Positions 1-19,990 of a stretch of 64,000 bases of DNA are shown in pieces. Source of the DNA: an uncultured Gemmatimonadales bacterium (GTDB lineage: Bacteria > Gemmatimonadota > Gemmatimonadetes > Gemmatimonadales > Gemmatimonadaceae); NCBI GenBank assembly GCA_963793305.1, contig CAWBZV010000005.1:384001-448000 (forward strand). The letters are read 5' to 3'. The stretch's first letter is position 1, and each line of letters opens with the position of its first letter. The position numbers and the translations under genes were made by a program. The notes under the pieces were generated by a model. The model searched no databases. It was not told the origin of the DNA and saw only the letters and a program-made list of their open reading frames with translations.

Positions 1-191
1 ACGAACACCGAATCCGGCTGGTCATCGAGCGCGGGGAGCAACACGACATCAGCGCCCGCGGCCGCGAGCGCCGCCCGATACGCCGCATGCTGGGCCCGCG
101 CCCGCTCGATATCGATCGCCTCCCGTTCGAGAAACGTGAGCTCGCAGCGCTCCATCGACGCGCTCGGCGCTCTCGTGATCGCCGTGATCAC
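1..191 (-). CDS. dimethylarginine dimethylaminohydrolase / amidinotransferase family protein (5' part; runs off window edge)
   Basis: Own translation from GTG at 191 (overlapping upstream stop, GTGA): MITAITRAPSASMERCELTFLEREAIDIERARAQHAAYRAALAAAGADVVLLPALDDQPDSVF, matching the DDAH N-terminus (A..QH..Y, PDSVF). Confidence 0.85.
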   Translation of the reverse strand, partial: MITAITRAPSASMERCELTFLEREAIDIERARAQHAAYRAALAAAGADVVLLPALDDQPDSVF

Positions 192-1015
192 GGGAGTTTC
201 GGCGACGGGAGGCTGACGAGCACGCCCGTGATGACCAGCACGACGCACGCCATCGCGATCTCATACCGCGCGGACGCGTGCAGCTCTCGCGCGGCGGTCT
301 CATCGCCCAACCGGGGTTTGATGCGCTGCCAGTTCCAGTAGCCGAACGCGACGACCGCGAGGACGGCGACGAGCTTGACGTCGAGCGCGAACCCGTACGG
401 AGTCGTCCACAGAGCGGAGAGGTACTTCACGTGGCGCACGGCGGTAATGACGCCAGTCAGCGCGAGGAGCGATGCGCCCACGAGCGCGACGGGCGAGAAC
501 GCCCGCACGAGCCACGCGACCGCCAGTCCTCGCTGCTCCACGGACACTCGCTCGTGCAGCGCGGCCGGCAACGCCGCGGCAACGAGCACGAACAACGTGC
601 CAAGCCACAGCGCCCCGCCGATGACATGCAGGGGATTTACCGTAGACGTCCATTTGTCGAGGCGCATGCTCCGCACGGCAAACACCGTGGTCGCCAACGC
701 GGCGAGCGCCCACGCCAGTGTCATGCGTCGTGCCGCCAGCACGAAAGCGACGCCGGCGACGACGATGGCCGTCATGGGCACGAGCGGCACACTATGTCCT
801 TTCTTGCTGCTCATCGCGGCCGCTACGAGGTAGAGTACCCCAAACACACTGCCCACCGCGCCGATCCACGCCGCGCGGGCCGCGGCCTCGTCGCGCACCG
901 TGACATCCGCGCGAGTCAGCACCGCGTACCGAAAGGCGACCGCGCCAATGGTGGCGTACGCCGCGAGAAATCCCGCGTATTCGACGAACGGCTTCGGCCA
1001 CTCGATGAGCGACAT
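188..1015 (-). CDS. CopD family copper resistance membrane protein
   Basis: Start MSLIEWPKP at 1015; multiple TM helices; LHVIGGALWLG, FSPVALVG..LTG and YG..L.VKL motifs typical of CopD. Confidence 0.8.
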   Translation of the reverse strand: MSLIEWPKPFVEYAGFLAAYATIGAVAFRYAVLTRADVTVRDEAAARAAWIGAVGSVFGVLYLVAAAMSSKKGHSVPLVPMTAIVVAGVAFVLAARRMTLAWALAALATTVFAVRSMRLDKWTSTVNPLHVIGGALWLGTLFVLVAAALPAALHERVSVEQRGLAVAWLVRAFSPVALVGASLLALTGVITAVRHVKYLSALWTTPYGFALDVKLVAVLAVVAFGYWNWQRIKPRLGDETAARELHASARYEIAMACVVLVITGVLVSLPSPKLP

Positions 1016-1058
1016 GTGGCCTGAAGATTGTCCTCGCGCGGTATGTGCTACGTAACGG

Positions 1059-1613
1059 TTACTTCGGGAGTTTGTAGCGAACGCCGAACTGGAACGGGAA
1101 GAACGCCGCGTCGCCAGCCGCGAACGCCTCGTGCCAACGGAGCTCGAAGAATCCGTCGACGGGCCCGAAGGGGTAACGGAGACCGCCGCCGAGATTGATC
1201 CCGAGGTTCGTGTCGCTCGCGCCACCAATGCACCCATCGCAGCTGACCGAGACATGATAGATGCCGAGCCCCCCGAGGAGATACGGCTGAAGCTTCGACG
1301 TCCAATGCACGGGAATGTCGTACAGCGCGTCAACATCGAAGCGCAAGATGTCCAAGCTGCCGCCGGTATATCCAAAGTAGTCGTACCCGATCTCGCCACG
1401 GAACGCGACGGGCAGCGTGCTTTTCGGGTGCCACTCGGCGGCCGCCATCAGATCGAATCCCAAGCCGGCAGCGCCGTACGACGGCACGGCAAACCCGATA
1501 CTTCCATCGAGGGCCCACTCACTCGGCCCTGACGTAGCGGTGGCGCGTGTTTGGCCAACAGCGACAGAAGCGATACTCAGACTGGCGATCACGGCAGAGA
1601 CAAAGGGTCTCAT
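1059..1613 (-). CDS. outer membrane beta-barrel protein (OmpA/OmpW-like)
   Basis: Signal peptide, alternating amphipathic strands, PYLLGGLG motif, C-terminal FQFGVRY. Confidence 0.8.
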   Translation of the reverse strand: MRPFVSAVIASLSIASVAVGQTRATATSGPSEWALDGSIGFAVPSYGAAGLGFDLMAAAEWHPKSTLPVAFRGEIGYDYFGYTGGSLDILRFDVDALYDIPVHWTSKLQPYLLGGLGIYHVSVSCDGCIGGASDTNLGINLGGGLRYPFGPVDGFFELRWHEAFAAGDAAFFPFQFGVRYKLPK

Positions 1614-1712
1614 CGGCGTTGCTCCTCGAATGTTGTGAGCTGACCTGCTTCCCGCCGCGATATCTTAGGCGGGCACCTCACCAACAGACACGACGGGCCA
1701 CTATGTCCCGGG

Positions 1713-2000
1713 TCACATATCTGCTGTACGCAGCAACAACCCGGCTTCTTCGAATTGGGCGATCGTCCGGGCGACGGCCTCCCGGGCCGTAACGTCATCG
1801 ATCTTGAAGTCGCGCGCCAGCGCCGCCGCGATCGTCGAGGCGTCGTCACCGGCATCGAGCCGGCCCCACACGACCGCCGCGGTGGCGTTCAGCGAGAAGT
1901 ATCGATTGGTGCCGAGATGGATGATCACGGCGCCGCCCGGCACCGCGGCGCATGCCGTGTCGGGCGACGTACGATAGGCGGCGCCGTGGTTATCGTCCAC
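1713..2000 (-). CDS. PqqD family protein / stand-alone RiPP recognition element (RRE)
   Basis: 95 aa; GGAVIIHLGTNRYFSLNATAAVVWGRL...IAAALARDF...EEAGLL is the PqqD/RRE pattern; start overlaps the end of the nucleotidyltransferase. Confidence 0.9.
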   Translation of the reverse strand: MDDNHGAAYRTSPDTACAAVPGGAVIIHLGTNRYFSLNATAAVVWGRLDAGDDASTIAAALARDFKIDDVTAREAVARTIAQFEEAGLLLRTADM

Positions 2001-2973
2001 GCGCCAGCGCTCCCCGAACCGTCGCCACCGTGCGCAGCGGCGCGCAGACCGCCCGCCATGCCAGTCCCGCCAGCACTGCTGGCGATCCCTCAGCGAGTTG
2101 GCTCGCTACATAAACGAGCGGATCGAGATCGCCCGCCACTCGGGGCGTCGCTGGGACGGCCAATCTCGCCAGCGCGACACGGCGCACCGTGCGCCACGCG
2201 CGATCAGCCTCCCGCTCGCCGCGCAAGCCCGCTGCCGCCAACAATGTCTCCGCCGCGCGCCCGATGGGGACGTCCGTGGGCGCGTCTGCGCACACCGCCG
2301 ACACGTCCAGTACGTCGCGTAAACGATATCGCAACGTGCGGTGCACGACGGTCGCGTGCTCGAGCGTGTGGCGCGCCAGCGCCACCGCCGAGGGAATTTC
2401 GAGCCCAGGCACCGGCGTCCGCGTGTCTTGCCAGATGATCGTATCGAGTCCGGATCCGCCGTCTGACAACTGCGTGTGGATCTCGACGGCCAATGATCCG
2501 GCACGAATCAACGCGGGGAGATGCCGCGATGGCGTTCCCGTGTCGTCCGGCTGATAGCCGAGCTCCCGTTGCAGCGCCTGATGCCAGGCCGTTGGATGTT
2601 CGACGAGGAGGTCGATGTCAGCCAGCGTTCTGCGCCCGGCAGGTTCGCCACTCAACAGACGCGCGGCGCCTTTGAGAACGAGCACGCGACCGATACGTGG
2701 CGCGATCTCCGCGATCTCCGCCAGTTGCACTTGAGCAGTGAGCGCGTGAGCGACGGCGGCTTCCGATTGCGCGCGCAACACGTGCCGGGCAGGCTCCATG
2801 GCGCGCGCCAATCCAGGATCCCGCCGACACGCCCATTCGAGCCACGGCCCACACGCCTCGATGCACAGCACGCGCTCCCACGTCGCGACATCGCTCGGCC
2901 CAATGTCCCCCACGCTCCGACCGCGCACGGCCGCCGAAACGATATCGTAGACGGCGGCCGCCGACGATGTCAT
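1990..2973 (-). CDS. nucleotidyltransferase family protein (NTP_transf_5-like)
   Basis: VLKGAA...GRRTLADIDLLV, VEIH and LRDVLD motifs; ATG at 2973 overlaps the kinase stop (ATGA). Confidence 0.85.
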   Translation of the reverse strand: MTSSAAAVYDIVSAAVRGRSVGDIGPSDVATWERVLCIEACGPWLEWACRRDPGLARAMEPARHVLRAQSEAAVAHALTAQVQLAEIAEIAPRIGRVLVLKGAARLLSGEPAGRRTLADIDLLVEHPTAWHQALQRELGYQPDDTGTPSRHLPALIRAGSLAVEIHTQLSDGGSGLDTIIWQDTRTPVPGLEIPSAVALARHTLEHATVVHRTLRYRLRDVLDVSAVCADAPTDVPIGRAAETLLAAAGLRGEREADRAWRTVRRVALARLAVPATPRVAGDLDPLVYVASQLAEGSPAVLAGLAWRAVCAPLRTVATVRGALARGR

Positions 2974-3743
2974 GCCGCCGCCAACAGTGTCTGATCGATG
3001 ACGTGCAGTTGCCGCGGCGAGTGCGTGAGCCGATACGCGGGGACCTGCGTCGCGATCGCACGCAAGGCATCGAGATGCCGACGCGCGTCGTCGTCCGGTA
3101 TCAATACCCACGCGGACTGCGCGATCAACTGGACGAGCGCCTCGACCGCGGTAATGCGCGTGAGGTGATCGGTCGGCCCTTGCGTCAGAAACACCATGCC
3201 GACGAGCGGCCCGCGCCGCGCGACACCCATGGTACGCGGAAGCCGTCGGCGTGCATCATTCAACACGCCTTGCCCCTCGAGCTCCGGAAATTCGCCCTTG
3301 AGATCCGTGCTGACCCACAGATCCTCGCGCCACGCGTGAGCCGTGACGCCATTCGCTACCCGCTCGAGGATCACGCCGTCGTCGCCGAGCACGCGCCAGC
3401 CCACGCGGGCCAGCGCATACGCCAGGGTGGACTTGCCGCTGCCGCTCACGCCGCTCAACACCCAGGCGCGACCGCGAGGGTCGACGACACCGGACGCGTG
3501 CAAGTGATAGCGGCCGCCACGACGTAAGCGAAGGATCGCCCCAGCGCGCGCGAGTTCGCGGCGCGATGCGGCGGGAATCGTCTCATATCCAGGTCCGCGC
3601 GCGAGTCGTCCATCGCGCACCCACAACTCGGCGCCCGCGTCGTGCGTCAGATGCGCGTCAGTACCGCGACTTCTCCCGACGACGGCGTTGAACTGCCACC
3701 GAAAATCGGTCAGTGGCAGGTTGGCGTCGGCGATTTTGTGCAC
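2970..3743 (-). CDS. HprK-related kinase (lasso-peptide-kinase / HPr-rel type); start uncertain (GTG 3743, or CTG 3713 overlapping the precursor stop)
   Basis: LHASGV, Walker A GVSGSGKST and LGDD signature of HPr kinase-like P-loop kinases. Confidence 0.85.
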   Translation of the reverse strand: MHKIADANLPLTDFRWQFNAVVGRSRGTDAHLTHDAGAELWVRDGRLARGPGYETIPAASRRELARAGAILRLRRGGRYHLHASGVVDPRGRAWVLSGVSGSGKSTLAYALARVGWRVLGDDGVILERVANGVTAHAWREDLWVSTDLKGEFPELEGQGVLNDARRRLPRTMGVARRGPLVGMVFLTQGPTDHLTRITAVEALVQLIAQSAWVLIPDDDARRHLDALRAIATQVPAYRLTHSPRQLHVIDQTLLAAA

Positions 3744-3880
3744 GAGATGCCGATCTGCAACAACGCCGCAACAGCCGGTAGGCCCGCGTGTTGTGAGAAC
3801 GCGGCTAGGAACCCGTGCTCTCTCACCACGGGCTCCTCCCACACCAGTGTACCCGGAAGCTGCAGCGTATAAGAAACCAT
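3710..3880 (-). CDS. putative RiPP precursor peptide, 56 aa (not in ORF track)
   Basis: ATG 3880 to TGA 3710: MVSYTLQLPGTLVWEEPVVREHGFLAAFSQHAGLPAVAALLQIGISCTKSPTPTCH; contains WxxPxVxxxGxxxxxS, the spacing of the RRE-binding lasso leader motif; lies directly upstream of kinase-NTase-RRE. Confidence 0.65.
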   Translation of the reverse strand: MVSYTLQLPGTLVWEEPVVREHGFLAAFSQHAGLPAVAALLQIGISCTKSPTPTCH

Positions 3881-4042
3881 CAGTAAGAAGACGCATATCG
3901 CCCCGCTCAGGTAATTGTGTCCTGTAGCACACGGCGAATCGTTTGTTCCGCACGATGTGATAGGGCGCGTCGTTTTTTCGCGTCAAGCGCGCCAAACACC
4001 CGGCCGATACTGGGAAGTGACCCTAATTGGCCGAGGATTTTG

Positions 4043-5941
4043 GTGTCTACCCACGTTCGCTTGTCCTTCATTGCCATTGCGCTCCTGGTCGCGGGCTGTA
4101 GCTCCACGGCCGATCTCGGCGTCACGCCGGGCACTGGCACGCTCTACGGTACGATCTCGAATACGAGCGGCGCACTCGCCGGCGTCACGGTTGTCGTGAC
4201 CCCGGTTGGTTCAGCCGCACTGCCGTCGGTGACGACGACCAACGCCGGGACCTATCGCGTCGCCGGCATCGACGTCTCGACGAGCGGCAGCGGCACGGTC
4301 GCGGTGAGCGGCTTGCCTAACAACTGCACGATTCCCGCGGCGGCCACGTACAACGGCCTGCGCGCGAACGATTCGGTCAACGTCTCAGTGAGCGTCACCT
4401 GTACGACGCCCCCGTCAGTCGGCTCGATCGTCGGCACCATCACGTCGAGTCTGGGTGGCGGGATCGCCGGTGCGAAAGTGACGGTCACTCCCTCCGGTGC
4501 GAGCGCTCTTGCCGCCGTCACCACTGGCTCGAACGGCGCATACTCCGTGAGCTCGGTCCCCGTGGGTCAGGGCACCGTGTCTATCTCGAGCCTGCCGCAA
4601 TTGTGCACGGCACCGAATGCCAAGGCCTATGCCAATCTCGCCTCAGGCAAAGTCGACACGGTGAACGTGACGGTCACGTGCACCCCGGCGACCGGCAGCC
4701 TGGCGGTCGTGATCAGTACCGTGGCCGGTGCGACGCCGAGCGTGACGATCACCGGTCCGGCCAGCTACTCGAAGACGTTGTCCACGACTCAGACGCTCTC
4801 GGGCCTGACGCCGGGCAGCTACACCGTCAGCGCAGCGACGGTTGACGCGTCCAATGCAATCGTCGCCACCGTTGACACGGCGACGGTGTCGGTCGCGAGT
4901 GAGAACGTCACGGCGGGCGCGACAGCAACCGATAGCATCACCTACACCGCCCGAGTCGGCACGGGCGCACTCTGGATCGCCAACGCCCAAGGCTCAGCCG
5001 CGTTCGTCGACTACACCGCCACGCAACTGGCGGCCAGTGGTTCGCCTGCTCCGAACATGTCCTCGGGTACCGCGGCACCGAGCGCCACGTCCAACGCGAT
5101 GGCGTTCGACGCCCACGGCAACCTGTGGATGATCGCCGGCAACTCGAGTCAGATCCTCGAGTATTCGGCCGCCCAGCTCACGAGCAGCACCCCCGCCGCG
5201 ACGATCACGATCAATGATGGGAACGGCGTCGGGATCAACGGCATGGCATTCGATGCGCAGGGCAATCTCTGGTTGGCGAACTACGGCCCGTGCGATATCG
5301 ACGAGCTCTCCGCGTCGCAACTCGCGTCGGCCAGTGGATCGGTCACCAAGACCCCAGTCATGATCCTGAACGGCTGCGGCGCGAACGTGACCGTGACCGG
5401 CCCGAACGGCTTGGCGTTCGATGCGAATGGCAATCTGTGGGTCGCCGATATCGACTCGTCCGATGTCTACGAGTATCCGGCGAGCGTGCTCACCGGTACG
5501 GGCGCCGTCACGAGCGAGCCCGTGTTCCAGACCCGCCCCGGCATCGCGGTCCAGTACCTGGCGTTCGACGGCGGTGGCAACCTCTGGATGAGCGGCTCCA
5601 CCCAAGTCGTGCGCCTCTCGTCCACACAGCTCGCGGCCGGCGGTTCCAACGCACCGGTGACCGCGACGCCAAGCGGCAGTGTGACAGTGACGGGCGCGTC
5701 GCTCGAGGGCGTTGCCTTCGACGACAGTGGCGACCTCTGGGTCGTCGACAATGCCAACGCCGCGGCGCTCGAGATCTCGGCCACACAGTTGGCGAATGGT
5801 GGCACCGTTACGCCGACCACCAGGATCGGTGCGTCGAGCGGCTCGTTGAGCGCGCCCTGGTCACTCGCCTTCAATCCACATCCGACCAGCCTGCCTCAGC
5901 CGGCCCAACCAGGTCCCCAAATCTCACGTCGTCGGAAGTAG
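4043..5941 (+). CDS. lipoprotein with 2 carboxypeptidase-regulatory-like (Ig-like) repeats and a C-terminal NHL/Vgb-like beta-propeller
   Basis: GAGGA RBS then GTG; lipobox LVAGC; repeated AFDxxGNLW blades. Confidence 0.8.
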   Translation: MSTHVRLSFIAIALLVAGCSSTADLGVTPGTGTLYGTISNTSGALAGVTVVVTPVGSAALPSVTTTNAGTYRVAGIDVSTSGSGTVAVSGLPNNCTIPAAATYNGLRANDSVNVSVSVTCTTPPSVGSIVGTITSSLGGGIAGAKVTVTPSGASALAAVTTGSNGAYSVSSVPVGQGTVSISSLPQLCTAPNAKAYANLASGKVDTVNVTVTCTPATGSLAVVISTVAGATPSVTITGPASYSKTLSTTQTLSGLTPGSYTVSAATVDASNAIVATVDTATVSVASENVTAGATATDSITYTARVGTGALWIANAQGSAAFVDYTATQLAASGSPAPNMSSGTAAPSATSNAMAFDAHGNLWMIAGNSSQILEYSAAQLTSSTPAATITINDGNGVGINGMAFDAQGNLWLANYGPCDIDELSASQLASASGSVTKTPVMILNGCGANVTVTGPNGLAFDANGNLWVADIDSSDVYEYPASVLTGTGAVTSEPVFQTRPGIAVQYLAFDGGGNLWMSGSTQVVRLSSTQLAAGGSNAPVTATPSGSVTVTGASLEGVAFDDSGDLWVVDNANAAALEISATQLANGGTVTPTTRIGASSGSLSAPWSLAFNPHPTSLPQPAQPGPQISRRRK

Positions 5942-5974
5942 CGGCGACGAAGCAGTCAGTGCATACTTGCGCCC

Positions 5975-6721
5975 ATGCGAACGCTGCATGGGCGCAAGTT
6001 TTTGGTGCTAGGTCTTCTGGCCGCCGCCCAGGCCGGAGCACAAGACCTCGGCCCCTGGCCGCAACACTCGATGGACCGGCCGAAGCCCGCGATTATCGAC
6101 CCGGGTCCGCCGCCATCAGACGCGATCGTGCTGTTCAACGGCCACGACCTCTCGAACTGGCGCAACGCCGACAGCGCCGACAAGCCAGCGCTGTGGAAGG
6201 TCGAGAACGGCTATATAGAAGTCGCGCCCCACACGGGCAACATCGCCACGAAGCAGTTGTTCGGCGACTGCCAGCTCCACATCGAATGGGCGACGCCCGC
6301 CAAGGTCGAGGGCGAAGGCCAGGAGCGCGGCAATAGCGGCGTGTTCATGGCGGGAAAGTACGAGATCCAGGTCCTGGACTCGTATGACAACCCCACATAC
6401 GCCGACGGCCAAGCGGCGTCGATGTTCGGCCAGTATCCGCCATTAGTCAACGCGAGCCGCAAGCCGGGCGAATGGCAGACATATGATGTCATCTGGCACG
6501 GCCCGAGATTCGACGCGAATGGGAAACTGACCCGTCCTGCACGAATCACCGTGTTTCACAATGGCATTCTCGTGCAGGACAACGTCACGCTCTCCGGTCC
6601 GACGGCGTTCAAGAGACGCCCGCCGTACACGAGCGACCCGGTGAAAATGCCGCTGGCGTTACAGGACCACGAATTCCCGGTACGCTTCCGCAATATCTGG
6701 ATCCGCGAGCTGGCGAACTAA
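5975..6721 (+). CDS. DUF1080 / 3-keto-disaccharide hydrolase family protein
   Basis: Signal peptide; LFNG.DL..W, GNSGVF, YEIQVLD, GEWQTY, LQDH..PV.FRNIWI motifs. Confidence 0.9.
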   Translation: MRTLHGRKFLVLGLLAAAQAGAQDLGPWPQHSMDRPKPAIIDPGPPPSDAIVLFNGHDLSNWRNADSADKPALWKVENGYIEVAPHTGNIATKQLFGDCQLHIEWATPAKVEGEGQERGNSGVFMAGKYEIQVLDSYDNPTYADGQAASMFGQYPPLVNASRKPGEWQTYDVIWHGPRFDANGKLTRPARITVFHNGILVQDNVTLSGPTAFKRRPPYTSDPVKMPLALQDHEFPVRFRNIWIRELAN

Positions 6722-6723
6722 CA

Positions 6724-8382
6724 GTGCGGCCGATTTACAATGTCGCCATCGTCGGCTCCGGCGCGGGCGGCGGCATGGCGGCGTACATGCTCACGAAGGC
6801 CGGCGCCAACGTCGTGTTGCTCGAAGCGGGCGCTCAGTGGAGCGCGATCGCCGACGGCGCGATGCTCACCTGGCCGTACGAGTCTCCCCGCCGTGGCGCG
6901 TCGACACCCACGCATCACTTCGGCGAATTCGACGCCTGTATCGGTGGCTGGTCGGTCGATGGCGAGCCATACACGACTGCCCCCGGCTCGGAGTTCATGT
7001 GGTGGCGCGCGCGGATGCTCGGCGGCCGCACCAACCACTGGGGTCGCATCTCGCTCCGCTGGGGTCCGGACGACTTTCGCCGCAAGTCTATAGACGGCCT
7101 CGGCGACGACTGGCCGATCACGTACGACGACGTCAAGCCGTGGTACGACGAAACCGACCGGCTGATCGGGTTATTCGGCAGCAACGAAGGTCTGCCGAAC
7201 GATCCCGACGGAGTCTTCCTCCCGCCGCCCAAGCCGCGCTGCTTCGAGCTGCTGATTCAGCAGGCTTGCAATAAGACAGGCGTTCGCTGCATTCCGGCCC
7301 GACTCTCGATCCTGACGAAACCGGTCAACGGACGTGCGGCGTGCCACTACTGCGGGCAGTGCAGCCGCGGGTGCAAAACCAACTCGAACTTCTCGAGCCC
7401 TGGCGTGCTGATCGAGCCGGCGCAGCGCACGGGCAAGCTCACGTTGCTGACGAACGCGATGGTGCGCGAAGTCACCGCCGGACAGGACGGACTCGCGACT
7501 GGCGTCAGCTACATCGACAAGACGACGGGAGCCGACGAACACGTCCGGGCTCGCATCGTCGTCCTCGCCGCCAGCGCCTGCGAATCGGCCCGTTTGCTCT
7601 TGAACTCCGGCCTCTCCAACCACAGCGGGCTGGTTGGCCAATACCTGACGGATACGACTGGCACCGACGTCTCGGGTTACATCCCACGCATGGCCGACCA
7701 CATCACGCACAACGAAGACGGCGTCGGCGGCATGCACCTCTACATGCCATGGTGGGTCGACAACAAGACGTTGGACTTTCCTCGGGGCTATCACATCGAG
7801 CCCAGCGGCGGCCTGCATTTGCCGGCGTACGGCTTCATGAGCGACACCATGCGACACGTGTCCCACGCGGGGTACGGCAAGGCGCTCAAGGCCGACTATC
7901 GCCGCCTCTACGGCGCAACCGTGCATTTCTCGGGTCGCGGCGAGATGATCCCCAACGCCGACTCGTACTGTGAGATCGACCCGAACGTGGTCGATCGGTG
8001 GGGCATTCCCGTGCTCCGCTTCCATTGGAAGTGGACCGACTACGAGTACAAGCAGGTGAAGCACATGCAAGAGACCTTCCGGTCGTTGATCAGCGCGATG
8101 GGCGGCGAGCCGCTGACGCCGATGCCCACGGCCGCCGAGGGCTATGGCATCGCGGCCGGCGGGCAGATCATCCACGAGCTCGGCACGACGCGCATGGGTC
8201 GTGACCCATTGACGTTGGTGCTCAATGCGTGGTGCCAATCGCACGAGGTCAAGAACCTCTTCGTCGTCGACGGCGGCCCGTTCGTCTCGCAGGCCGACAA
8301 GAATCCCACGTGGACGATCCTCGCCCTCGCCATGCGCACGAGCGACTATATCGCCACGCAGCGCAAATCGGGGGCGCTATGA
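6724..8382 (+). CDS. GMC family flavoprotein oxidoreductase (glycoside 3-dehydrogenase-like)
   Basis: GSGAGG FAD motif, LGGRTNHW, CHYCGQC..GC Fe-S motif, IIHELGTTRMG, KNPTWTILALA. Confidence 0.9.
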   Translation: MRPIYNVAIVGSGAGGGMAAYMLTKAGANVVLLEAGAQWSAIADGAMLTWPYESPRRGASTPTHHFGEFDACIGGWSVDGEPYTTAPGSEFMWWRARMLGGRTNHWGRISLRWGPDDFRRKSIDGLGDDWPITYDDVKPWYDETDRLIGLFGSNEGLPNDPDGVFLPPPKPRCFELLIQQACNKTGVRCIPARLSILTKPVNGRAACHYCGQCSRGCKTNSNFSSPGVLIEPAQRTGKLTLLTNAMVREVTAGQDGLATGVSYIDKTTGADEHVRARIVVLAASACESARLLLNSGLSNHSGLVGQYLTDTTGTDVSGYIPRMADHITHNEDGVGGMHLYMPWWVDNKTLDFPRGYHIEPSGGLHLPAYGFMSDTMRHVSHAGYGKALKADYRRLYGATVHFSGRGEMIPNADSYCEIDPNVVDRWGIPVLRFHWKWTDYEYKQVKHMQETFRSLISAMGGEPLTPMPTAAEGYGIAAGGQIIHELGTTRMGRDPLTLVLNAWCQSHEVKNLFVVDGGPFVSQADKNPTWTILALAMRTSDYIATQRKSGAL

Positions 8383-8416
8383 AAGTCGGGAGCGCTATGA
8401 AATCGGGAGCGCTATG
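8365..8416 (+). repeat. three tandem copies (17/18/17 nt) of AAA(G)TCGGG(A/G)GCGCTATG spanning a gene junction
   Basis: aaatcgggggcgctatg / aaagtcgggagcgctatg / aaatcgggagcgctatg read directly. Confidence 0.9.
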
Positions 8417-8947
8417 AGTGAGATCTCTCGCCGCGAGATGGTGGCGTGGCTCGCCACCTTGCCAATCGCGCAGGCGGCGTTAGCCGCCGAGCGCGCCTTG
8501 CGTGCCAACGCACCATTCGCGCCGAAATTCTTCACGCCGCACGAATGGCGCACGGTTCGCTTACTGGCCGACTATATCATCCCACGCGATGACCGCTCCG
8601 GCAGCGCCACCGATGCGGGCGTGCCGGAGTTCATGGATTTCATCATGACGGACCGCCCACAGGAGCGCTTGGCCATGCGCGGCGGTCTCCACTGGCTCGA
8701 CAATCACTGTCGCGACCGGTTCAACGCGACGTTCGCCGACTGCACACCGGCTCAGCAGACATCCATGCTCGACCAAATCTCCACTCCTCCAGTCGAGTTC
8801 TTCGCGATGTTCCGCGACCTGACGGCCACGGGATTCTGGTCGAGCAAAATGGGCGTCGCCGATCTCCGCTACATTGGCAACACGGTCGTGCACGAATGGA
8901 ACGGCTGCCCCGACGCGGCCCTCGCCAAGCTCGGAGTCTCTTACTGA
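8414..8947 (+). CDS. gluconate 2-dehydrogenase subunit 3 family protein (Tat-exported partner of the GMC enzyme)
   Basis: MSEISRRE Tat-like start; IIPRD..SGSA.DAGVPEF.DF; GFWSSK.G..DL.Y.GN. Confidence 0.88.
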   Translation: MSEISRREMVAWLATLPIAQAALAAERALRANAPFAPKFFTPHEWRTVRLLADYIIPRDDRSGSATDAGVPEFMDFIMTDRPQERLAMRGGLHWLDNHCRDRFNATFADCTPAQQTSMLDQISTPPVEFFAMFRDLTATGFWSSKMGVADLRYIGNTVVHEWNGCPDAALAKLGVSY

Positions 8948-10176
8948 TGGCGGCCCGTCGACTCGGCATCGGTTTCGTCGGGAGCGGATTCAACGCCCGA
9001 TTTCACATCCAGTCGCTCGTTGCCATCCGCGATGCCGACGTCATCGGCGTCTGGAGTCCCAACGCCACTCGCGCCGCCGAAGCCGCTGCCCTCGCCCGTT
9101 CTCTCGACGTCGGCAATGCTCGGCCATTCGCCTCGATCGCCGACATGGTTGCCGACCCGGCAATCGACGCACTGTGGATCTGCGGCCCAAATCAAGCGCG
9201 AATCGAGAATATAGAAGAGATGGTCGAAGCGTTGTCACGTGGCCGGGGCAAGCTCATTGGGGTCGCGTGCGAGAAGCCCTTGGCGCGAAATGTTGCCGAG
9301 GCGGAGAAGGTCGTCGCGCTCGTTCAAGGCGCCGGACTCGCACACGCGTACCTGGAGAACCAAGTCTACGCCCCGCAGGTTGCGCACGGCCGTACAACGA
9401 TATGGTCGCGCGGAGCGCGCCAAACAGGCCGCCCATATCTCGCCAGAGCCGCCGAGGAACACGGCGGCCCACACATGCCTTGGTTCTGGCAGGGCGCGCT
9501 CCAGGGTGGTGGCGTCCTCAATGATATGATGTGCCACTCGGCCCTCCTTGTTCGCCACTTATTGACGGGCCCAGGCGAGACGATCGCACCAAAGCGCGTG
9601 ACCGCCCATATCGCGAGCCTCAAATGGTCGCGCCCGGAATACGCCGCGCAACTCTCGAAGACGATGGGAGTCGACTATACCCGAACGCCGTCAGAAGACT
9701 TCGCCAGCATGACGATCGAGTTCGAAGCCCCCGATGGCCGCCTCGTGTTCGGCGAGGCGACGACCTCGTGGAGCTACGTCGGCGCCGGCCTGCGCTTATC
9801 GGCCGAGCTCCTCGGCCCCGAGTATTCGATGTCCTGGAACACGCTCAACAGCGGACTTCAGGTCTTTTTCAGCCGCGCGGTCGCCGGCGCGGCGGGGGAA
9901 GATATGATCGAGAAGCAGAACGCCGAGATCGGCCTCATGCCGCTCGTCACGAACGAGGCGGAGGCCTACGGCTACGTGGGCGAAAACCGCCACATCGTGC
10001 GCGCGTTCCTGCGCGGTGAAAAGCCGGACTACACGTTCGACGACGGGCTCGAGGTCGTGAAAATACTCATGACCGCGTACATGAGCGCGGAGCAAGGCAG
10101 GACGTTGTCTTTCCCGCCGAACGATCTGACGACGTTCGTCCCCCAAGTAGCCAAAGGGAGCTGGCGTCCTCAGTAG
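8947..10176 (+). CDS. Gfo/Idh/MocA family oxidoreductase
   Basis: GFVGSGF Rossmann motif, CEKPL, GGGVLNDMMCH; TGATG coupling. Confidence 0.88.
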   Translation: MAARRLGIGFVGSGFNARFHIQSLVAIRDADVIGVWSPNATRAAEAAALARSLDVGNARPFASIADMVADPAIDALWICGPNQARIENIEEMVEALSRGRGKLIGVACEKPLARNVAEAEKVVALVQGAGLAHAYLENQVYAPQVAHGRTTIWSRGARQTGRPYLARAAEEHGGPHMPWFWQGALQGGGVLNDMMCHSALLVRHLLTGPGETIAPKRVTAHIASLKWSRPEYAAQLSKTMGVDYTRTPSEDFASMTIEFEAPDGRLVFGEATTSWSYVGAGLRLSAELLGPEYSMSWNTLNSGLQVFFSRAVAGAAGEDMIEKQNAEIGLMPLVTNEAEAYGYVGENRHIVRAFLRGEKPDYTFDDGLEVVKILMTAYMSAEQGRTLSFPPNDLTTFVPQVAKGSWRPQ

Positions 10177-10973
10177 GTCAGTTGCCGTAAGTAGGTATAA
10201 CTGATCCGCGCATCATCCAGTGGAGCCGTCGGCTCGTCATGCTCGACGAAGATGTGCTTGAGCCCAGCCTGTTCGGAATGGCGAAAAATAGCGCCGAAGT
10301 CGATGGCGCCACGTCCGACGTCGACCATCTCGCCACTCTTGGTCATGTCTTTCGCATGCACCATCGGAAAGCGTCCTGGATATGCCGCGAAGTACTTGAT
10401 CGGATCCCACCCACCCTTGACCATCCAAAAGATGTCGCACTCCATCTGCACGAGCTTCGAATCGCATTCGTGCAGCAGGAGGTCGTAGGGGATGATGCCT
10501 TCGACCGTGTCGAACTCGAAGTCGTGATTGTGGTACGCGAACTGGATGCCGGCCTTCTGCGTCAGCTCCCCAAATTGGTTGTACTTGGCCGCGTTACGCT
10601 TGTATCCGTCGACGGTCCGGTCACTCTGATCGGTAAACGGACACACGATATACCGCTGCCCGATGACCCCGGCATCGTCGATGATCTTGTTCCAGTCACT
10701 CTTGAGCACGGCCACGTGCCCTGATGGCGCTCTGAGGCCCGCGCCATCCAGCATCTTCCGCATCTCAGCCGCCGTCTTGTCGTAGAATCCGGCGAGCTCC
10801 ACCTCGCGGTACCCGATGGACGCCAGTGCGGCGAGGGTCCCCGCCACATCGCGTTGCATGAGCGACCGAACCGTGTAGGCTTGTATGCCGATTGGCCCGA
10901 GCTTGCTCTTGCTGCGTAACCCGAGAGCGATCATCGCTTGTGTCGCATGCCGGATAAACGTTCGCCGAATCAT
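10170..10973 (-). CDS. sugar phosphate isomerase/epimerase (xylose isomerase-like TIM barrel)
   Basis: IRRTF Tat-like start; GIQAYTVR, YHNHDFEF, HAKD, FVEHD. Confidence 0.88.
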   Translation of the reverse strand: MIRRTFIRHATQAMIALGLRSKSKLGPIGIQAYTVRSLMQRDVAGTLAALASIGYREVELAGFYDKTAAEMRKMLDGAGLRAPSGHVAVLKSDWNKIIDDAGVIGQRYIVCPFTDQSDRTVDGYKRNAAKYNQFGELTQKAGIQFAYHNHDFEFDTVEGIIPYDLLLHECDSKLVQMECDIFWMVKGGWDPIKYFAAYPGRFPMVHAKDMTKSGEMVDVGRGAIDFGAIFRHSEQAGLKHIFVEHDEPTAPLDDARISYTYLRQLTY

Positions 10974-11924
10974 ATGCCTGGTCCCATTGTGGTTCTCCGA
11001 GAGCCCGAGATCCGCTCGTTACTCGACCCCGCGTCGTGCATCGCCGCCGTCGAGCAAGCCTTCACGGCCTACGCGACCGGCGGCGCGGAGCTCCCCGGCG
11101 TGATCCACCTCGACGTGCCGGAGCATCGAGGCGAGATCCATATCAAAGCGGGTCATCTCCGCGGCGGCAACTGGTACGCGTGCAAGTTCGCATCCGGCTT
11201 CGCCGGACGGAACGATGGCGTCGTGCTGACGTTCGACGCGCGGACCGGGGCGCCTGCCGGGATCTTGTTCGATGGTGGCTATTTAACGGACCTGCGCACC
11301 GCCGCCGCCGGCGCCATCGCCGCCCGTCACCTGGCCGTTCCGTCAGTCGACACTGTAGCGATACTCGGCACCGGAATCCAGGCACGTCTCCAGCCTCGAC
11401 TCATAGCCACAGTCCGTCCATTTCGGTCAGCCCGGGTGTGGGGGAGACGTCACGACGCGGCCGAGGCGGTTGCTGCCGACATCGGAGGCACCGTCGCCGA
11501 GACAGTCGAGGCCGCTGTAAATGGCGCGCAAGTCATTATCACGGTCACCGCCAGCCGCACTCCGATCCTACGTGCGGAGTGGCTTACCCCGGGAGTGCTG
11601 GTGATCGCCGTCGGTTCCGATGGCCCGGACAAGCAAGAATTGGATGTCGGAGTTCTAGCCCGCGCCGATCGATTGGTTGCCGATTCCTTGCTACAATGCG
11701 CGAGACTTGGCGAGATCCATCATGCCCTGTCCGCCGGAGTCATCTCCGAACGTGACGTAACCGAGCTCGGCCAGATCACCTCAGGCCAGGCCCCAGGCCG
11801 TCGCACCCCGACCGAGACGATCGTGTGCGACTTGACCGGAGTAGGAGTACAAGATGTCGCCGCGGCGACGGTCGTGATGGAGCGCGCGCTGGCTACACGA
11901 GACCTTTACGAGCGGCGAATATAA
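10974..11924 (+). CDS. ornithine cyclodeaminase / mu-crystallin family protein
   Basis: HIKAGH, LTDLRTAAAG, GTGIQA, VGSD...KQEL, DLTGVGVQD. Confidence 0.88.
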   Translation: MPGPIVVLREPEIRSLLDPASCIAAVEQAFTAYATGGAELPGVIHLDVPEHRGEIHIKAGHLRGGNWYACKFASGFAGRNDGVVLTFDARTGAPAGILFDGGYLTDLRTAAAGAIAARHLAVPSVDTVAILGTGIQARLQPRLIATVRPFRSARVWGRRHDAAEAVAADIGGTVAETVEAAVNGAQVIITVTASRTPILRAEWLTPGVLVIAVGSDGPDKQELDVGVLARADRLVADSLLQCARLGEIHHALSAGVISERDVTELGQITSGQAPGRRTPTETIVCDLTGVGVQDVAAATVVMERALATRDLYERRI

Positions 11925-12336
11925 AATCGGTCGTCGCGGGTGTATCGCCGCGATCCCGCGTCAACATCGCCAATTGCCCGCGATGATACGCCGAGTGCAT
12001 GAGCACGTGCGTGAGCACGTCCTCGATGGAATTCTCGGACGCTTCACCCTTCGCGTTGGTATAGCGGAGTCTCGCGGAGAGATCGGGTCCGCTGGCGAGA
12101 TACGCACTCCACTCACTCGCGTCGGTCGCGAGCTCCGCGGCGCACTGATCGCGCGTGAGAGTGGGCCAGACCACGAGCGGGCTAGCCCGCCCGGTCAGCC
12201 GCGACAGCCATGTGCGTTGTGATCCGGCGAGGTGCCCGAGGATGGCGAGCGCACGAGGCGATGGCGTCTCCGGGAGCGCCGCGATCGACTCGCGATTCGC
12301 CCACGCGTCGTAACCAAAGAGTCGAGGGAAGTTCAT
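11893..12336 (-). CDS. DinB family protein
   Basis: YDAWAN, GHL, HVLMHSAYHRGQ. Confidence 0.88.
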   Translation of the reverse strand: MNFPRLFGYDAWANRESIAALPETPSPRALAILGHLAGSQRTWLSRLTGRASPLVVWPTLTRDQCAAELATDASEWSAYLASGPDLSARLRYTNAKGEASENSIEDVLTHVLMHSAYHRGQLAMLTRDRGDTPATTDFIFAARKGLV

Positions 12337-12767
12337 TCGACGATGATCGTCCCTTGCATGCCGAGCGACTGATGCGGCAAGCAGTAGAACTTGTACGCGC
12401 CGGGCTTGACGTCTTTGAACGTGATCACGTACGAATCATCAGGGTTCGGCACCAGCGGACCCGTGAGCTTGGCCTGTTGCCGCGGCATGTCCGCGTCGAG
12501 CGTCGGCGCGGCGCCCTCTGGGATGTCCTGCGGATCGAACGTGATGTTGTGCGGCCCCCCTGAGACGGTCACGAACTTCACGCTCTGCCCGGCTTTGATT
12601 CGTACCATCGATGGTTTGAACGAATATCCAGCGCTCGAGCCAATCATTTGCACGGTGACCGTGTCGCCGGCTGCGTTTCCAGTGCGGACGGCTGGGGCTG
12701 GATGCGCAGCGAGTAGCACGACCGTTGCAACGAATACCGTGAGCGTGCCAATCCCGAGCTTATGCAT
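12333..12767 (-). CDS. plastocyanin/azurin family blue copper protein
   Basis: Signal peptide; GPHNI and YCLPHQSLGM type-1 copper ligands. Confidence 0.9.
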   Translation of the reverse strand: MHKLGIGTLTVFVATVVLLAAHPAPAVRTGNAAGDTVTVQMIGSSAGYSFKPSMVRIKAGQSVKFVTVSGGPHNITFDPQDIPEGAAPTLDADMPRQQAKLTGPLVPNPDDSYVITFKDVKPGAYKFYCLPHQSLGMQGTIIVE

Positions 12768-12815
12768 GTGTTTCTCTGTATATATTGGGTAAGCCTATTA
12801 CGAGGAGAGAAGGGA

Positions 12816-13148
12816 ATGAGCACAATATGGCGTGTCGGCAACGCAGTGGGCACTCTCGTCGTTGTGGTTGCGATGGCCGGCTGTTCGAATGGGGACAAGC
12901 AGCTGGCCAATGGTGACCTCGGTTTGACGGGGACCATTCACTCGGTGCAAGCGAGTGACGGCAGTACGTGCTGGACGCTGACGTCGGCGTCGGGCAAGAC
13001 GTACGAGCTGCAGCCCGCGCAAGCGCCACAAGATCTGCTCGTCGATGGCAAGCAAGCGACGATCACGGCCAAGCCGCGCTCCGGAGGCAGCTTCTGCAAG
13101 ATGGGGCAGATCATCGACGTGGTGCGGGACTCGACAGCGAAGACCTGA
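12816..13148 (+). CDS. hypothetical lipoprotein
   Basis: Purine-rich RBS; lipobox MAGC; short beta-rich domain with a Cys pair. Confidence 0.65.
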   Translation: MSTIWRVGNAVGTLVVVVAMAGCSNGDKQLANGDLGLTGTIHSVQASDGSTCWTLTSASGKTYELQPAQAPQDLLVDGKQATITAKPRSGGSFCKMGQIIDVVRDSTAKT

Positions 13149-13209
13149 TCGCCCGCTCAACAAACTGTTGCCTTGCGTGAGTCGCAGCGCCCCGCACATC
13201 GTTGGGGCG

Positions 13210-14119
13210 ATGCTGGCTCGTGCGCTGATTCTCGTCTGTCTGGCCATGGCTGGGCCCGCATGGGCTCAGACGTGTCATTTGCCGCCGGATAGCCACGAGG
13301 CGCGCCTCCTGGCCTTCTTCGAGGCTCCTCTGGCGTTCTCGACCGCGACCGGACCAGAGCAGCACGAGCCGCTCACCGTACGGCTCGGCGTCGAGGTGTC
13401 GCCACTCCCGTCGCCGGACTCCTCGCTGCGAGAGACCGGCGCGTGCTACCTCGCCAAAAGCGAGCACACGACGCTGGCGCCAGTCTTCCCGCGTCCCCGG
13501 ATTACCGTGTGGTTGCCATTCGGTTTCGCGGCCGAGGCGAGCTACGATCCGCCGATTCCCATCGGCCAGGCGAATGTCAACGTCGGGAGCCTGGCCCTCG
13601 CGTACACCCACCGCATCGTGAGCCTTCCGGGCGTTGACCTGGCGCTCGGGCTCCGCGCGCAAGGCACGCTCGGACATATCACGGGTCCGATCACCTGCCC
13701 ACAGTCCGCACTGCAGCTCACGGACACGTCGGCCGCATGCTACGGCACGAAGCCGTCAAAGGATGCATTCAATCCGGCGATGTACGGCGTCGAGGGATCG
13801 CTCGGCGCGTCGTTCCTGAGCGGCCATCTCCGCCACGTACGTCGGCGGCGGGCTGTCCCGCCTCTACCCGACGTTCGATGTCGGATTTCATTCGGCTTCC
13901 TACTCGATAACGTATGGCGGGACTCCCGGGGTTGGCCTGGGCTACGGGTCTCCGACACCATACCTGCCGCACTTGGTCGTCGACCTCACGCGAGGCACCG
14001 TATTCGGCGGCGTCGTCTGGCACGTGACGCGCGCGTTCGACGTGAATACGCAGGTCTACTCGGTGCCGAAAGACGTCACCACCTTCCGATTCGGCGCCGG
14101 CTACCGACTCGGTACCTAG
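13210..14119 (+). CDS. secreted/outer-membrane beta-barrel-like protein, frameshifted near 13830
   Basis: Signal peptide MLARALILV...AWAQ; after an extra base near 13830 the shifted frame reads ATYVGGGLSRL...TTFRFGAGYRLGT* (TAG 14117-14119). The 431-aa ORF in the track is an artefactual fusion. Confidence 0.65.
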
Positions 14120-14340
14120 TGCAGCGCGAGCCAGTCTCCTCATCGTCCATCGCCTCCGTCGGGTACGACGAGGCAACCGCGACGCTGGAGATCGAGTTTC
14201 ACAACGGCCGCATCTATAAATTCCGGGGCGTGCCGCCACAGATGGCCGTGGCGTTGCGCGCCGCTCCATCCACTGGCGCGTACTTCAACAAATATGTCCG
14301 CAATGGCGGCTACGAATTCACGTTGGTTCGCGAGCGGTAA
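14119..14340 (+). CDS. KTSC domain protein
   Basis: GTG start; REPVSSSSIASVGYD..TLEIEF.NG..Y...GVP...APSTGAYFNKYVR. Confidence 0.88.
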   Translation: MQREPVSSSSIASVGYDEATATLEIEFHNGRIYKFRGVPPQMAVALRAAPSTGAYFNKYVRNGGYEFTLVRER

Positions 14341-14983
14341 GACCTGGATCTGGATCGTGATCGCGCTCGTCGCTTTCGTGGCGGCGTCGCTGATCGATAC
14401 GTGGGCGTTCCATCATCTCCAGAAGCCGAACGTCTACGATCAGGATTGGGGCCGAGCCCTGCGTTCAGTCGGCTACTGGCCGCTGTGGATGCTCCTCGCC
14501 CTGGCACTCTGGCTCGTCGACCGCAAACGCGGCCAGGGCTACCGTCGCGCGGCGTTCCTCGCCGGTTCCATCACCGTTGCGGGCATCCTCGGCGAGATCC
14601 TCAAGCTCATCGTCCGTCGTGAGCGCCCGGGCACACACGACGGCCTCTATGGATTCCGTCCGTTCGCGGATCACCCGTTCAGTAGCCGCAACTTCGGGAT
14701 GCCGAGTAGCCACGCCGTCATTGCGTTCTCCGGCGCGGCCGCGCTCAGCGTTCTCTTTCCCGAAGCGACCGTGGTCTGGTACGCGCTCGCCATCGGCTGT
14801 GGCGTGACACGCGTGCTCTCCGGCGCCCACTTCGTGAGCGACGTTGTCGCCGGTGCCGCGATCGGCATCGCCGTCTCTATCGTCATCGCGCGCCGGCTCG
14901 GCTCAGCCGAGCTCCGTCCAATCGACCAGTCGAGCAGCGCTTGCGCTGCATCGACGCGCGGCGGAGCCGCCGTCCGGCCCTAG
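14294..14983 (+). CDS. PAP2 family membrane phosphatase (start uncertain)
   Basis: K..VRRERP, MPSSH, TRVLSGAHFVSDV motifs. Confidence 0.88.
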   Translation: MSAMAATNSRWFASGKTWIWIVIALVAFVAASLIDTWAFHHLQKPNVYDQDWGRALRSVGYWPLWMLLALALWLVDRKRGQGYRRAAFLAGSITVAGILGEILKLIVRRERPGTHDGLYGFRPFADHPFSSRNFGMPSSHAVIAFSGAAALSVLFPEATVVWYALAIGCGVTRVLSGAHFVSDVVAGAAIGIAVSIVIARRLGSAELRPIDQSSSACAASTRGGAAVRP

Positions 14984-16824: not shown

Positions 16825-16946
16825 ATGATCGGATCTCCGGGTTCGATGCAACCCTGCCGAAGGGGTGACGCGGCACCCGGTATCCGGTCACTCAACCAGG
16901 ATTCGGCACTGGGTTCTGATCCGGAGGTTCGCTAGACTCTTTCTCG

Positions 16947-18680: not shown

Positions 18681-19135
18681 TCCTGGCTCTCGCGGTAATC
18701 GGCTGTAACTCGAAGCCGATCCGCCTCGTGCGCGGCAGAAAGGAGGGCGTGCCGCCATCCATCCGCCCGAGCTCGCGCATATTCGCGGGCGGTATCGCGC
18801 CGCCAGCTGGCGCCCTTGGCAATCCGCAGCCCGAAAACGCGAAGACGGCCGCCGAGGGCGCGAAGCTCTTCACGAGCATGAACTGCGACGGCTGCCACGG
18901 CGGCGGCGGCGTCGGATTCGTCGGTCCGAGCCTCACCGCGCGCCGCTGGCGCTACGGTGGGAGCGATGGTGAGATCTTCACGTCGATCTTCTACGGGCGC
19001 TCACACGGCATGCCCGCGTTCGGCGGTGCGCTGCCGCCCGAGATGATCTGGAAGATCGTGACCTACATCAAATCCCTGCCGCCACCGACCGACCTTCCCA
19101 CCGAGTCATGGCAGGAGGTCGGCGGGGATCGGTGA
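18662..19135 (+). CDS. class I cytochrome c (probable electron acceptor of the PQQ dehydrogenase)
   Basis: CDGCH heme motif, GPSL...W.YGG, GMPAFG; overlaps the dehydrogenase end. Confidence 0.85.
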   Translation: MDLRALILALAVIGCNSKPIRLVRGRKEGVPPSIRPSSRIFAGGIAPPAGALGNPQPENAKTAAEGAKLFTSMNCDGCHGGGGVGFVGPSLTARRWRYGGSDGEIFTSIFYGRSHGMPAFGGALPPEMIWKIVTYIKSLPPPTDLPTESWQEVGGDR

Positions 19136-19645
19136 ATTCGGCCGCTCATCGTCCCACGACGCGGCTGTGATCCACCACCGGTTGCCGTCCCAGTAGAGAT
19201 CGATCGAGTTGACGCCGCGCGCGGTCACGGGTCCCGCGGCGACTCTCCGCGACTCGTACGTGCTCATGACGTGCGCGATGTTCCCGATGCGGGACATCGT
19301 GCGGTGAATCTCGTGCTCGTCGAATCCATTTTTCGCGAACCCGCCATCAGTCGCATCGACGTACTCCTGATGCGTGAGCACGCGCACCGTCGGTGTGCCG
19401 TCCTTGTTCACACTGGCCGCGAAGAATCGGATGCCCGGCCAGTAGAGCGTCCGATCCCGCCCCCATTGCCGGGGCTGTCCAGCGGGACCTGAGATGACAT
19501 CATAGTACGCGGCAACGATGCCATCGATCGTCGCGACATCCGCCGGCCGCGGCGTGAGCGTCGGAACAGCCACGTGCGAGGCTGGCGCTTGCGCGCTGGC
19601 GACCGTCGCCAGCGTCGCGGTCAGTACGAAAAGTGAGAGGCGCAT
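19106..19645 (-). CDS. secreted NTF2-like hypothetical protein
   Basis: Signal peptide; YDVISGPAG, GNIAHV.STYE, RGVNSI.L..DG.RWWI. Confidence 0.7.
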   Translation of the reverse strand: MRLSLFVLTATLATVASAQAPASHVAVPTLTPRPADVATIDGIVAAYYDVISGPAGQPRQWGRDRTLYWPGIRFFAASVNKDGTPTVRVLTHQEYVDATDGGFAKNGFDEHEIHRTMSRIGNIAHVMSTYESRRVAAGPVTARGVNSIDLYWDGNRWWITAASWDDERPNSPIPADLLP

Positions 19646-19693
19646 GCCGGCTATATAGCGCGCCTCCCACCGCCACGCTACCCCGCGTCGGCG

Positions 19694-19975: not shown

Positions 19976-19990
19976 AAGGGCTCTCGCGCC

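Follow-up and report, generated by a model that had tools for sequence, protein, structure and literature searches.

A 56-residue peptide encoded on the minus strand of the window (the whole 64,000-nucleotide stretch analysed) is a real gene hidden within a kinase reading frame, and it belongs to an undescribed, kinase-centred variant of the cyclase-less phosphorylated RiPPs. Conservation at the protein level, combined with the co-occurrence of precursor and kinase, makes the peptide the likely substrate of an undescribed pathway, and we regard it as highly probable that the peptide is the substrate of this kinase. No description of the precursor family was found in the searchable literature, and the words "kinase" and "nucleotidyltransferase" are absent from the main texts of PMC7470986 and PMC12710340. 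The genes form a minus-strand operon in the order precursor, HprK-like kinase, NTP_transf_5, RRE, with the precursor at its head and a lipoprotein gene diverging from it:

3710..3880, minus strand: precursor peptide gene, 56 aa (purifying selection in the peptide frame; family profile searches)
2970..3743, minus strand: HprK-like peptide kinase, likely start GTG 3743 or CTG 3713
1990..2973, minus strand: NTP_transf_5 (PF14907) nucleotidyltransferase-like protein (E 5.6e-13, above cut-off; K-G and D-x-D intact)
1713..2000, minus strand: stand-alone RRE (PqqD, PF05402), above cut-off; Asn38 kept, Ala75 in place of the Asp of Tyr-binding RREs
4043..5941, plus strand: divergent lipoprotein with lipobox LLVAGC, Ig-like domains and an NHL beta-propeller (Pfam), present or absent together with the cassette

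A conserved gene hidden by the kinase reading frame

A first-pass annotation, made from the letters of the sequence, had proposed that an over-extended kinase ORF masks a short peptide with a lasso-type leader and a Cys-bracketed tail. Translation of 3880-3710 on the minus strand returned the same 56 residues, lying in a different frame within the 341-aa open kinase frame. The W14-P17-V19-G23-S29 spacing held when checked on the translated peptide, as did the lack of Asp or Glu after E21, the five Ser/Thr in residues 46-56, the Cys47/Cys55 pair and the caveat of a weak RBS. The lasso-type motif by itself could arise by chance: in a looser form, [WY]xxPx[LV]xxxGx5[ST], it has 30 matches in the six frames of the whole genome, 14 of them 20-70 aa ahead of a stop. 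The motif derived from the family has a single match in the six frames, which is the 56-aa ORF. It is conservation, not the motif, that establishes the gene.

The close loci came from a kinase search of 61 genomes and a metagenome scan (12 loci); genome G012 enters only the tally of the 61-genome search. Over codons 1-46, dN/dS against 10 close loci was 0-0.24 in the peptide frame versus 2.0-8.5, or undefined where there was no synonymous change, in the kinase frame, all pairs sharing one common reference and the loci being kin. The peptide frame is therefore the one under selection, the outcome of a check that the first-pass annotation had itself suggested. It had also named what would speak against the peptide, namely homologous loci that keep the kinase frame from MRLLTDG instead, or stops in the peptide frame. 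Neither applies, because the kinase frame carries a stop inside the peptide gene at 4 of 13 loci (two of the four are probably the same strain) and the ATG of MRLLTDG is unconserved, being AGG in L002, L031, L033 and L035; the peptide frame has no stop at any of the 13 loci. G001 and G004 encode exactly this peptide, differing from the window by 7 and 6 synonymous changes and no replacement; in G005 the peptide is 85% identical, and in G002 43%. GC3 over the same stretch is 0.70 in the peptide frame versus 0.48 in the kinase frame. That the ORF is a coding gene is in our view virtually certain, and its being an artefact of the kinase frame is ruled out by dN/dS and by the kinase-frame stops.

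RNA data include one run with a small share of the words (0.07), and a 279-nt RNA contig spans 3577-3853 with 7 differences, which indicates presence only and is no proof of transcription; the three differences listed inside the peptide gene all fall at third codon positions. Pfam and NCBIfam gave zero matches for the peptide, an Atlas search with it returned no usable look-alike, Rfam found nothing in 1500-6200, and no sigma-70 promoter was called in 3400-4200. The divergent intergenic region 3885-4045 contains blocks kept across the close loci, TCACA..GTGCGGAAC and CACAATTACCTG on the minus strand, which from their conservation could possibly be promoter or regulator sites.

The probable start codon of the kinase is GTG 3743 or CTG 3713, the latter overlapping the TGA stop of the peptide, and not TTG 3995 or ATG 3896. 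The suspicion that its ORF was over-extended is thus borne out and the annotation corrected. A model of 245 residues from 3707 is complete (pLDDT 83.5) and matches HprK/PEPCK P-loop structures. Numbered from 3707, the kinase retains H70-G86-G89-G91-K92-S93-D109-D110, which is the catalytic motif of BsfK, with the D-D pair 17 residues past the Walker Lys. A programmed fusion of precursor and kinase by frameshift was also considered and is unsupported, as a stop separates the two in L005 and the 245-aa model folds as a whole. The best NCBIfam match of the kinase is the HPr-rel-A model TIGR04352, at 37.7 versus a cut-off of 200, and the HPr-rel-A PqqD model TIGR04353 scored 25.7 versus a cut-off of 35, which places the cassette outside that class. 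We take the TIGR04352 kinase and TIGR04353 PqqD chaperone to make up the HPr-rel-A kinase-PqqD cassette of unknown function, for which we know of no precursor family.

The kinase is the constant partner of the precursor

Precursor profile searches recovered 90 proteins (one labelled Gemmatimonadaceae) and 87 clusters at 50% identity, with two main core types, the Cys-loop type of the window (Q-I-G-x-[ST]-C-x(4-8)-C) and a radical-SAM (rSAM) type (I-P-[CG]-S-x-G-F-[CF]-P). In a sample of the phylum the peptides are nearly limited to one bacterial family, with 11 of its 69 genomes positive versus 2 weak matches among 231 others. Across 401 genomes of the bacterial family, 70 were positive with the kinase profile and 75 with the precursor profile, such that 67 carry both, 3 the kinase only, 8 the precursor only and 323 neither; these genomes are kin and non-independent, the profiles were partly built from these loci, and the two draws of 401 were taken as identical because their per-genus counts match. 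The unpublished genome G550 contributes to these totals (70, 75 and 67) as well as to the dN/dS, loop, tail and core counts. Among the kinase-only genomes two have the gene at a contig edge and one on a 7.8-kb contig, and 7 of the 8 precursor-only genomes have weak matches (E at least 1.7e-6). Six genomes with two kinases likewise carry two precursors. Genus g52 has the kinase-nucleotidyltransferase-RRE operon in the window's gene order with the precursor more than 100 kb away or on another contig, and both are kept.

At 20 loci chosen by the precursor, the kinase is adjacent in 16 and elsewhere in the genome in the other four. Taken from the kinase side, 37 wide loci (several close kin, and some cut by contig ends) contain an RRE in 27, the nucleotidyltransferase in 20, a radical SAM enzyme in 13, a B2 peptidase in 7, a PD40 propeller in 24, an unnamed ~450-aa lipoprotein or its N-domain in 22 and a cyclase in none; the nucleotidyltransferase is missing near 17 and the RRE near 10, contig ends cutting some of these loci.

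Several related arrangements were seen alongside. Loci L062, L126-L131, L166-L168, L170 and L173 form a sister subtype in which a radical SAM enzyme, and often B2, accompanies the highly conserved rSAM-type core; this is probably a further undescribed RiPP. Another kind of cyclase-less cassette, in L067, L068 and L069, has a longer kinase, an RRE, a nucleotidyltransferase and often B2, and its precursors are short, with FxxP, a T-L-x-S end and then a Gly-rich or Cys-bracketed core; three precursors stand in tandem in the L010/L067 cassette. NTP_transf_5 ORFs run in frame into a PD40 propeller at L062:2257-4224, L130:10483-12483 and L131:3127-5010, which, given an internal lipobox-like motif, may each be two overlapping genes and were set aside. 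A kinase-RRE fusion in L112 is probably a frameshift, as its close relative L174 has two ORFs. A second NTP_transf_5 gene lies at G000:C5:1322269-1322955, near glycosyltransferase, methyltransferase and radical-SAM-like genes.

Leader, spacer and core of the peptide

The peptide divides into the following elements:

3794..3841, minus strand: leader motif W14-x-x-P17-x-V19-x-x-H22-x-x-L25-x-x-F28-S29, predicted RRE-binding site
3755..3793, minus strand: hydrophobic spacer Q30-Q42 with the LLQ junction at its end (mean hydropathy 2.08 over residues 32-41)
3713..3754, minus strand: putative core I43-H56, S46 and C47 + C55 around a variable loop (core comparison)
3743-3745, minus strand: S46 codon, candidate phospho-acceptor (S/T exchange before the first Cys)

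The lasso-like leader motif of the first-pass annotation is real, but its conserved residue is His22 (83 of 86), not the Gly23 it had marked. Over 86 diverse members with the consensus WxxPxLxxHxSLxxLT, the successive positions count W 84, P 86, L 80, H 83, S 64, L/M 83, L/M 74 and T 75, counts that are partly circular as the profile contains these columns. S29 occupies the lasso Thr(-2) position. Between leader and core lies a further conserved element, LLQ-IG, which the annotation had passed over, and leader and spacer are better conserved than the loop. The Cys pair is conserved, in 35 of 37 non-rSAM-type tails and 66 of the 86 diverse members. The Ser/Thr-rich tail, described together with it, is not; because the loop is hypervariable, with a length of 3 to 10 and 7 of 41 loops devoid of Ser/Thr, this feature is incidental.

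The residue directly before the first Cys is Ser in 28 and Thr in 14 of 45 window-type cores, with another residue in 3 (S/T 42/45). In the diverse set 66 members carry Cys, and S/T holds this place in only 22 of them, versus a mean of 8.0 and a maximum of 16 in 2000 shuffles. The rSAM subtype has its Ser one place later, after Cys/Gly, and S/T is missing within -3..+1 of the first Cys in 8 of 87 members. Since the S/T exchange before the first Cys preserves the hydroxyl, Ser46 is most likely the phospho-acceptor, judging from sequence comparison.

We then considered the aromatic residue of the leader. In PMC13381572, Tyr leaders are held by an RRE Asp (D70 of LppB, 37 residues after N33), Trp-preferring RREs are without that Asp, and an Asp-bearing RRE is able to bind Trp leaders. 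The window RRE keeps Asn38 and has Ala75 37 residues on, aligned to Asp in TfuB1; its equivalence to D70 rests on spacing, with TfuB1, not LppB, in the alignment. Asp occurs at the Ala75-equivalent position in 0 of 26 RREs from cyclase-less kinase loci, several of which have FxxP or unidentified precursors, versus 3 of 3 lasso RREs of this genome. These belong to three YxxP lasso clusters (RRE-B2-cyclase) at G000:C5:654700-657300, C3:763800-767300 and C3:499000-512800, with Asp/Glu in the precursors and the C5 cyclase seemingly split across two overlapping ORFs. Any insulation between the systems is possibly one-way, because an Asp-bearing RRE can bind Trp leaders.

A variable unit beside surface lipoproteins

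In G003 (same genus, single contig, 94% complete) a porin-like gene is joined directly to a sugar-hydrolase gene and all between them is missing; kinase, transferase and precursor were not found elsewhere in G003. Because this empty site lacks the lipoprotein too, the variable unit includes the 4043-5941 gene, which adjoins the cassette in 10 close loci. Neither a peptidase (Pfam) nor an MsbA-like exporter was found among the five genes so bounded, so that the cassette itself offers no route for releasing a mature product. The window carries no cyclase or B2 peptidase in 1-20000, and the 20 wider loci no cyclase.

Surface lipoprotein genes flank 29 of the 37 kinase loci by two profiles, which were built from these loci and have a baseline of about 32 of 367 windows of this genome; four loci of the window's own type have an NHL lipoprotein instead. 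In G002, further propeller lipoprotein genes lie around and after the kinase, the nucleotidyltransferase and RRE being on another contig. The lipoprotein link is softened by the genomic background, in which 31 of 367 15-kb windows contain PD40 and the NHL lipoprotein has many paralogues. The arrangement of a fixed scaffold and a variable Cys loop beside propellers of peptide-binding type suggests a strain-specific surface signal, a reading from sequence that we prefer while counting it weakly supported. Separately, L114:5367-6707 and its homologues (22 of 37 kinase loci) represent an unnamed ~450-aa Gemmatimonadota lipoprotein family tied to the cassettes, which in Atlas falls in an unnamed cluster with weak (0.85 or lower) carbohydrate-binding leads.

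Relation to known phosphorylated RiPPs

Among known systems, the linear polyphosphorylated peptides (LPP, genes lppA-K-B-S-D-N) described from Bacillota come nearest (Popov et al. 2026, PMC13381572). Like LPP, the window combines a precursor, an HprK-like kinase, a discrete RRE and an NTP transferase with no cyclase, and the aromatic residue, P, aliphatic, His, aliphatic and Thr of the LPP leader YxxPxVLxHQxIxFETxxS are in register with WxxPxLxxHxSLxxLT. It differs in that the cassette is without the SpI/SipW-like peptidase and the MsbA-like exporter, both LPP features; in Trp (84 of 86) in place of Tyr; in the absence of the LPP Ser3 (0 of 37); in the 13-residue spacer with LLQ junction, the Cys-bracketed core and the S/T exchange; and in its Gram-negative phylum. 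PMC13381572 calls LPP restricted to Bacillota, and "Gemmatimonad" and "Gemmatirosa" are absent from its 6 supplements.

The Bsf cluster for a phosphorylated lasso peptide from Bradymonas sediminis (PMC10368454) has in common with the window the kinase motif H-G-G-G-K-S-D-D, an RRE, a nucleotidyltransferase and tolerance of both Ser and Thr. When the printed bsfA gene is read by eye, its leader places His and Leu in the same register as the window peptide, and the leader-core junction before the phospho-Ser, IIR|GTS, resembles LLQ|IGIS. Bsf differs in having B2, a cyclase, an ABC exporter and a ring-forming acid, and its phospho-Ser is core residue 3, right after the leader. Paeninodin and pseudomycoidin (PadeK, PsmK, PsmN; PMC6993621, PMC9266682) offer a WxxP leader, a His-Lys-Asp-Asp kinase and a DxD-dependent partner of NTP_transf_5 type, but are lassos phosphorylated on a C-terminal Ser, a residue that ends only 2 of 86 members here.

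The window shares with lasso systems a discrete RRE (PF05402 above cut-off) and, as W14-P17-V19, the leader motif [Y/W]xxPx[LVIAFY] given in PMC13381572. The other lasso hallmarks are missing, as the cassette has no B2 peptidase and Ser29 stands in the place of Thr(-2). The earlier statement that this is not a lasso peptide stands, there being no cyclase at the locus, no ring acid (8 of 86 in the family) and no B2.

Proposed pathway and its rivals

On this evidence, and by analogy with the characterized systems, we find it reasonably probable that the kinase carries out RRE-guided phosphorylation of a non-lasso peptide, probably capped by the nucleotidyltransferase-like enzyme. The proposal builds on the observed coding status, operon, intact catalytic motifs, co-occurrence, the lack of a cyclase at every locus examined and the exchange of Ser and Thr at position 46. 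In this scheme the WxxP leader would dock onto the RRE, a Ser/Thr close to the first Cys (most likely Ser46) would receive phosphate from the kinase, and in an optional step this phosphate would probably be capped with a hexose or nucleotide by the nucleotidyltransferase-like enzyme. All three steps, and the acceleration of (poly)phosphorylation by the RRE, are carried over from the biochemistry of Bsf, pseudomycoidin and LPP: BsfK takes Ser as well as Thr and works faster with its own RRE (PMC10368454), and PsmN, for which DxD is essential, adds a hexose onto the phosphate (PMC6993621). More tentatively, a Cys47-Cys55 disulfide might form after export, and a protease from another locus (a housekeeping enzyme or one of the genome's three lasso B2 proteins) might remove the leader at Q30 or at Q42, cutting behind that residue. 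The product might then serve at the cell surface as a signal, or as a ligand of the beta-propeller lipoproteins linked to the cassette. With the disulfide and one phosphate, the calculated monoisotopic mass is 6049.01 for the full-length peptide, 2663.30 for residues 31-56 and 1521.64 for residues 43-56. Against the proposal, position +3 after a lasso-type cut is Gly33 in this peptide, known kinases in the LPP, Bsf and lasso papers target core Ser3 or a C-terminal Ser, no Ser was found at the LPP Ser3 position among 37 members, family members differ in the acceptor residue, a share of the kinase loci have no nucleotidyltransferase or RRE nearby, and the cassette has neither peptidase nor exporter. 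In the LPP study, LppK rejects Thr and LppN was inactive (PMC13381572).

Processing bears directly on what the product is. B2 is limited to the rSAM type (7 of 37 loci, six with the radical SAM gene in the locus and the seventh with it on another contig), and Thr(-2) is T in 73 of 74 rSAM-type tails, the other types having 19 T, 21 S and 3 A (n=43), with tail types sorted by regex and a few misplaced. The lasso-type cut therefore seems relaxed in the window's lineage, where the peptide may undergo cleavage at LLQ by a different protease, cleavage in trans, or none. If it is neither cut nor secreted, the whole 56-aa (or 26-aa) phosphopeptide would be the product, a membrane-associated microprotein that regulates or carries phosphate within the cell or at its membrane. 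The lack of B2, SpI-like peptidase and exporter in the cassette, the drift of Thr(-2) to S/A in B2-less types and the better conservation of leader and spacer than of the loop all fit such a product, yet we consider it unlikely: a conserved Cys pair around a hypervariable loop better suits an oxidised, exported ligand, surface lipoprotein genes stand beside most kinase loci, and in heterologous hosts the pseudomycoidin precursor is cut even when its B proteins are absent (PMC6993621).

The fixed S/T-C ... C arrangement could also be read chemically, with Ser46 phosphorylation as an activation, followed by elimination and attack by Cys55 (or Cys47) to give a thioether-cyclised, lanthionine-like peptide made by the kinase only, with the nucleotidyltransferase-fold protein assisting. 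Kinase-then-lyase chemistry has a precedent in class III-V lanthipeptides. This is quite improbable, since every HprK-like RiPP kinase characterised in the accessible literature leaves a stable phosphate, Pfam showed neither a lyase nor a LanC-like gene in the cassette, and 20 of 86 members are without Cys. Slightly less probable still is that spacer and I-G-I-S-C make up a cryptic lipoprotein signal, the core becoming a tiny lipopeptide acylated at Cys47. Its appeal lies in the uncharged hydrophobic stretch (mean 1.73 over residues 32-47) that ends in x-S-C, which fits a relaxed lipobox pattern, and in the lipoproteins encoded by neighbour genes. Bacterial lipoproteins carry an N-terminal signal whose lipobox Cys lies at about residue 15-35, with Ala and Gly dominating position -1; here the Cys is residue 47, position -1 is S or T in 42 of 45 cores and never Ala or Gly, a basic n-region would be missing after a cut, and Cys-free members retain the same leader and kinase. 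A decayed lasso cluster, or lasso maturation by a cyclase encoded elsewhere, is the most remote reading of all. The genome does hold three RRE-B2-cyclase clusters, and 5 of 33 family members weakly match the lasso leader model NF033521 (best E 0.003), but D/E is found at core positions 7-9 in so few members, and nowhere after residue 21 in this peptide, that with strong purifying selection on the peptide and zero cyclases at 37 loci the reading is already contradicted here.

Significance

The reading that we prefer, RRE-guided phosphorylation of a non-lasso peptide, gives the kinase/NTP_transf_5/RRE cassette, a widespread orphan in a poorly cultured phylum (70 of 401 family genomes), the substrate that it lacked, in a four-gene, 2.2-kb system that is testable in E. 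coli. It bears on two questions that the LPP and Bsf papers leave open, namely the role of the PF14907 enzyme and the purpose of the phosphopeptides. As the same genome carries three YxxP lasso clusters, it also provides a natural test of W/Y leader discrimination outside Bacillota. A wider and decidedly speculative extension, which we think rather doubtful, is that Gemmatimonadaceae have a kinase-defined class of RiPPs in which a two-step leader, made up of RRE site, spacer and LLQ junction, gives phospho- or phosphoglycosylated disulfide-loop peptides whose hypervariable loops act as strain-specific signals for co-inherited surface propeller lipoproteins, with the Trp leader and Asp-less RRE insulating them from the YxxP lassos and the rSAM/B2 type as a sister subtype. 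If true, this would be an independent repeat, in a Gram-negative phylum, of a W/Y discrimination described, in the literature accessible, only for Bacillota.
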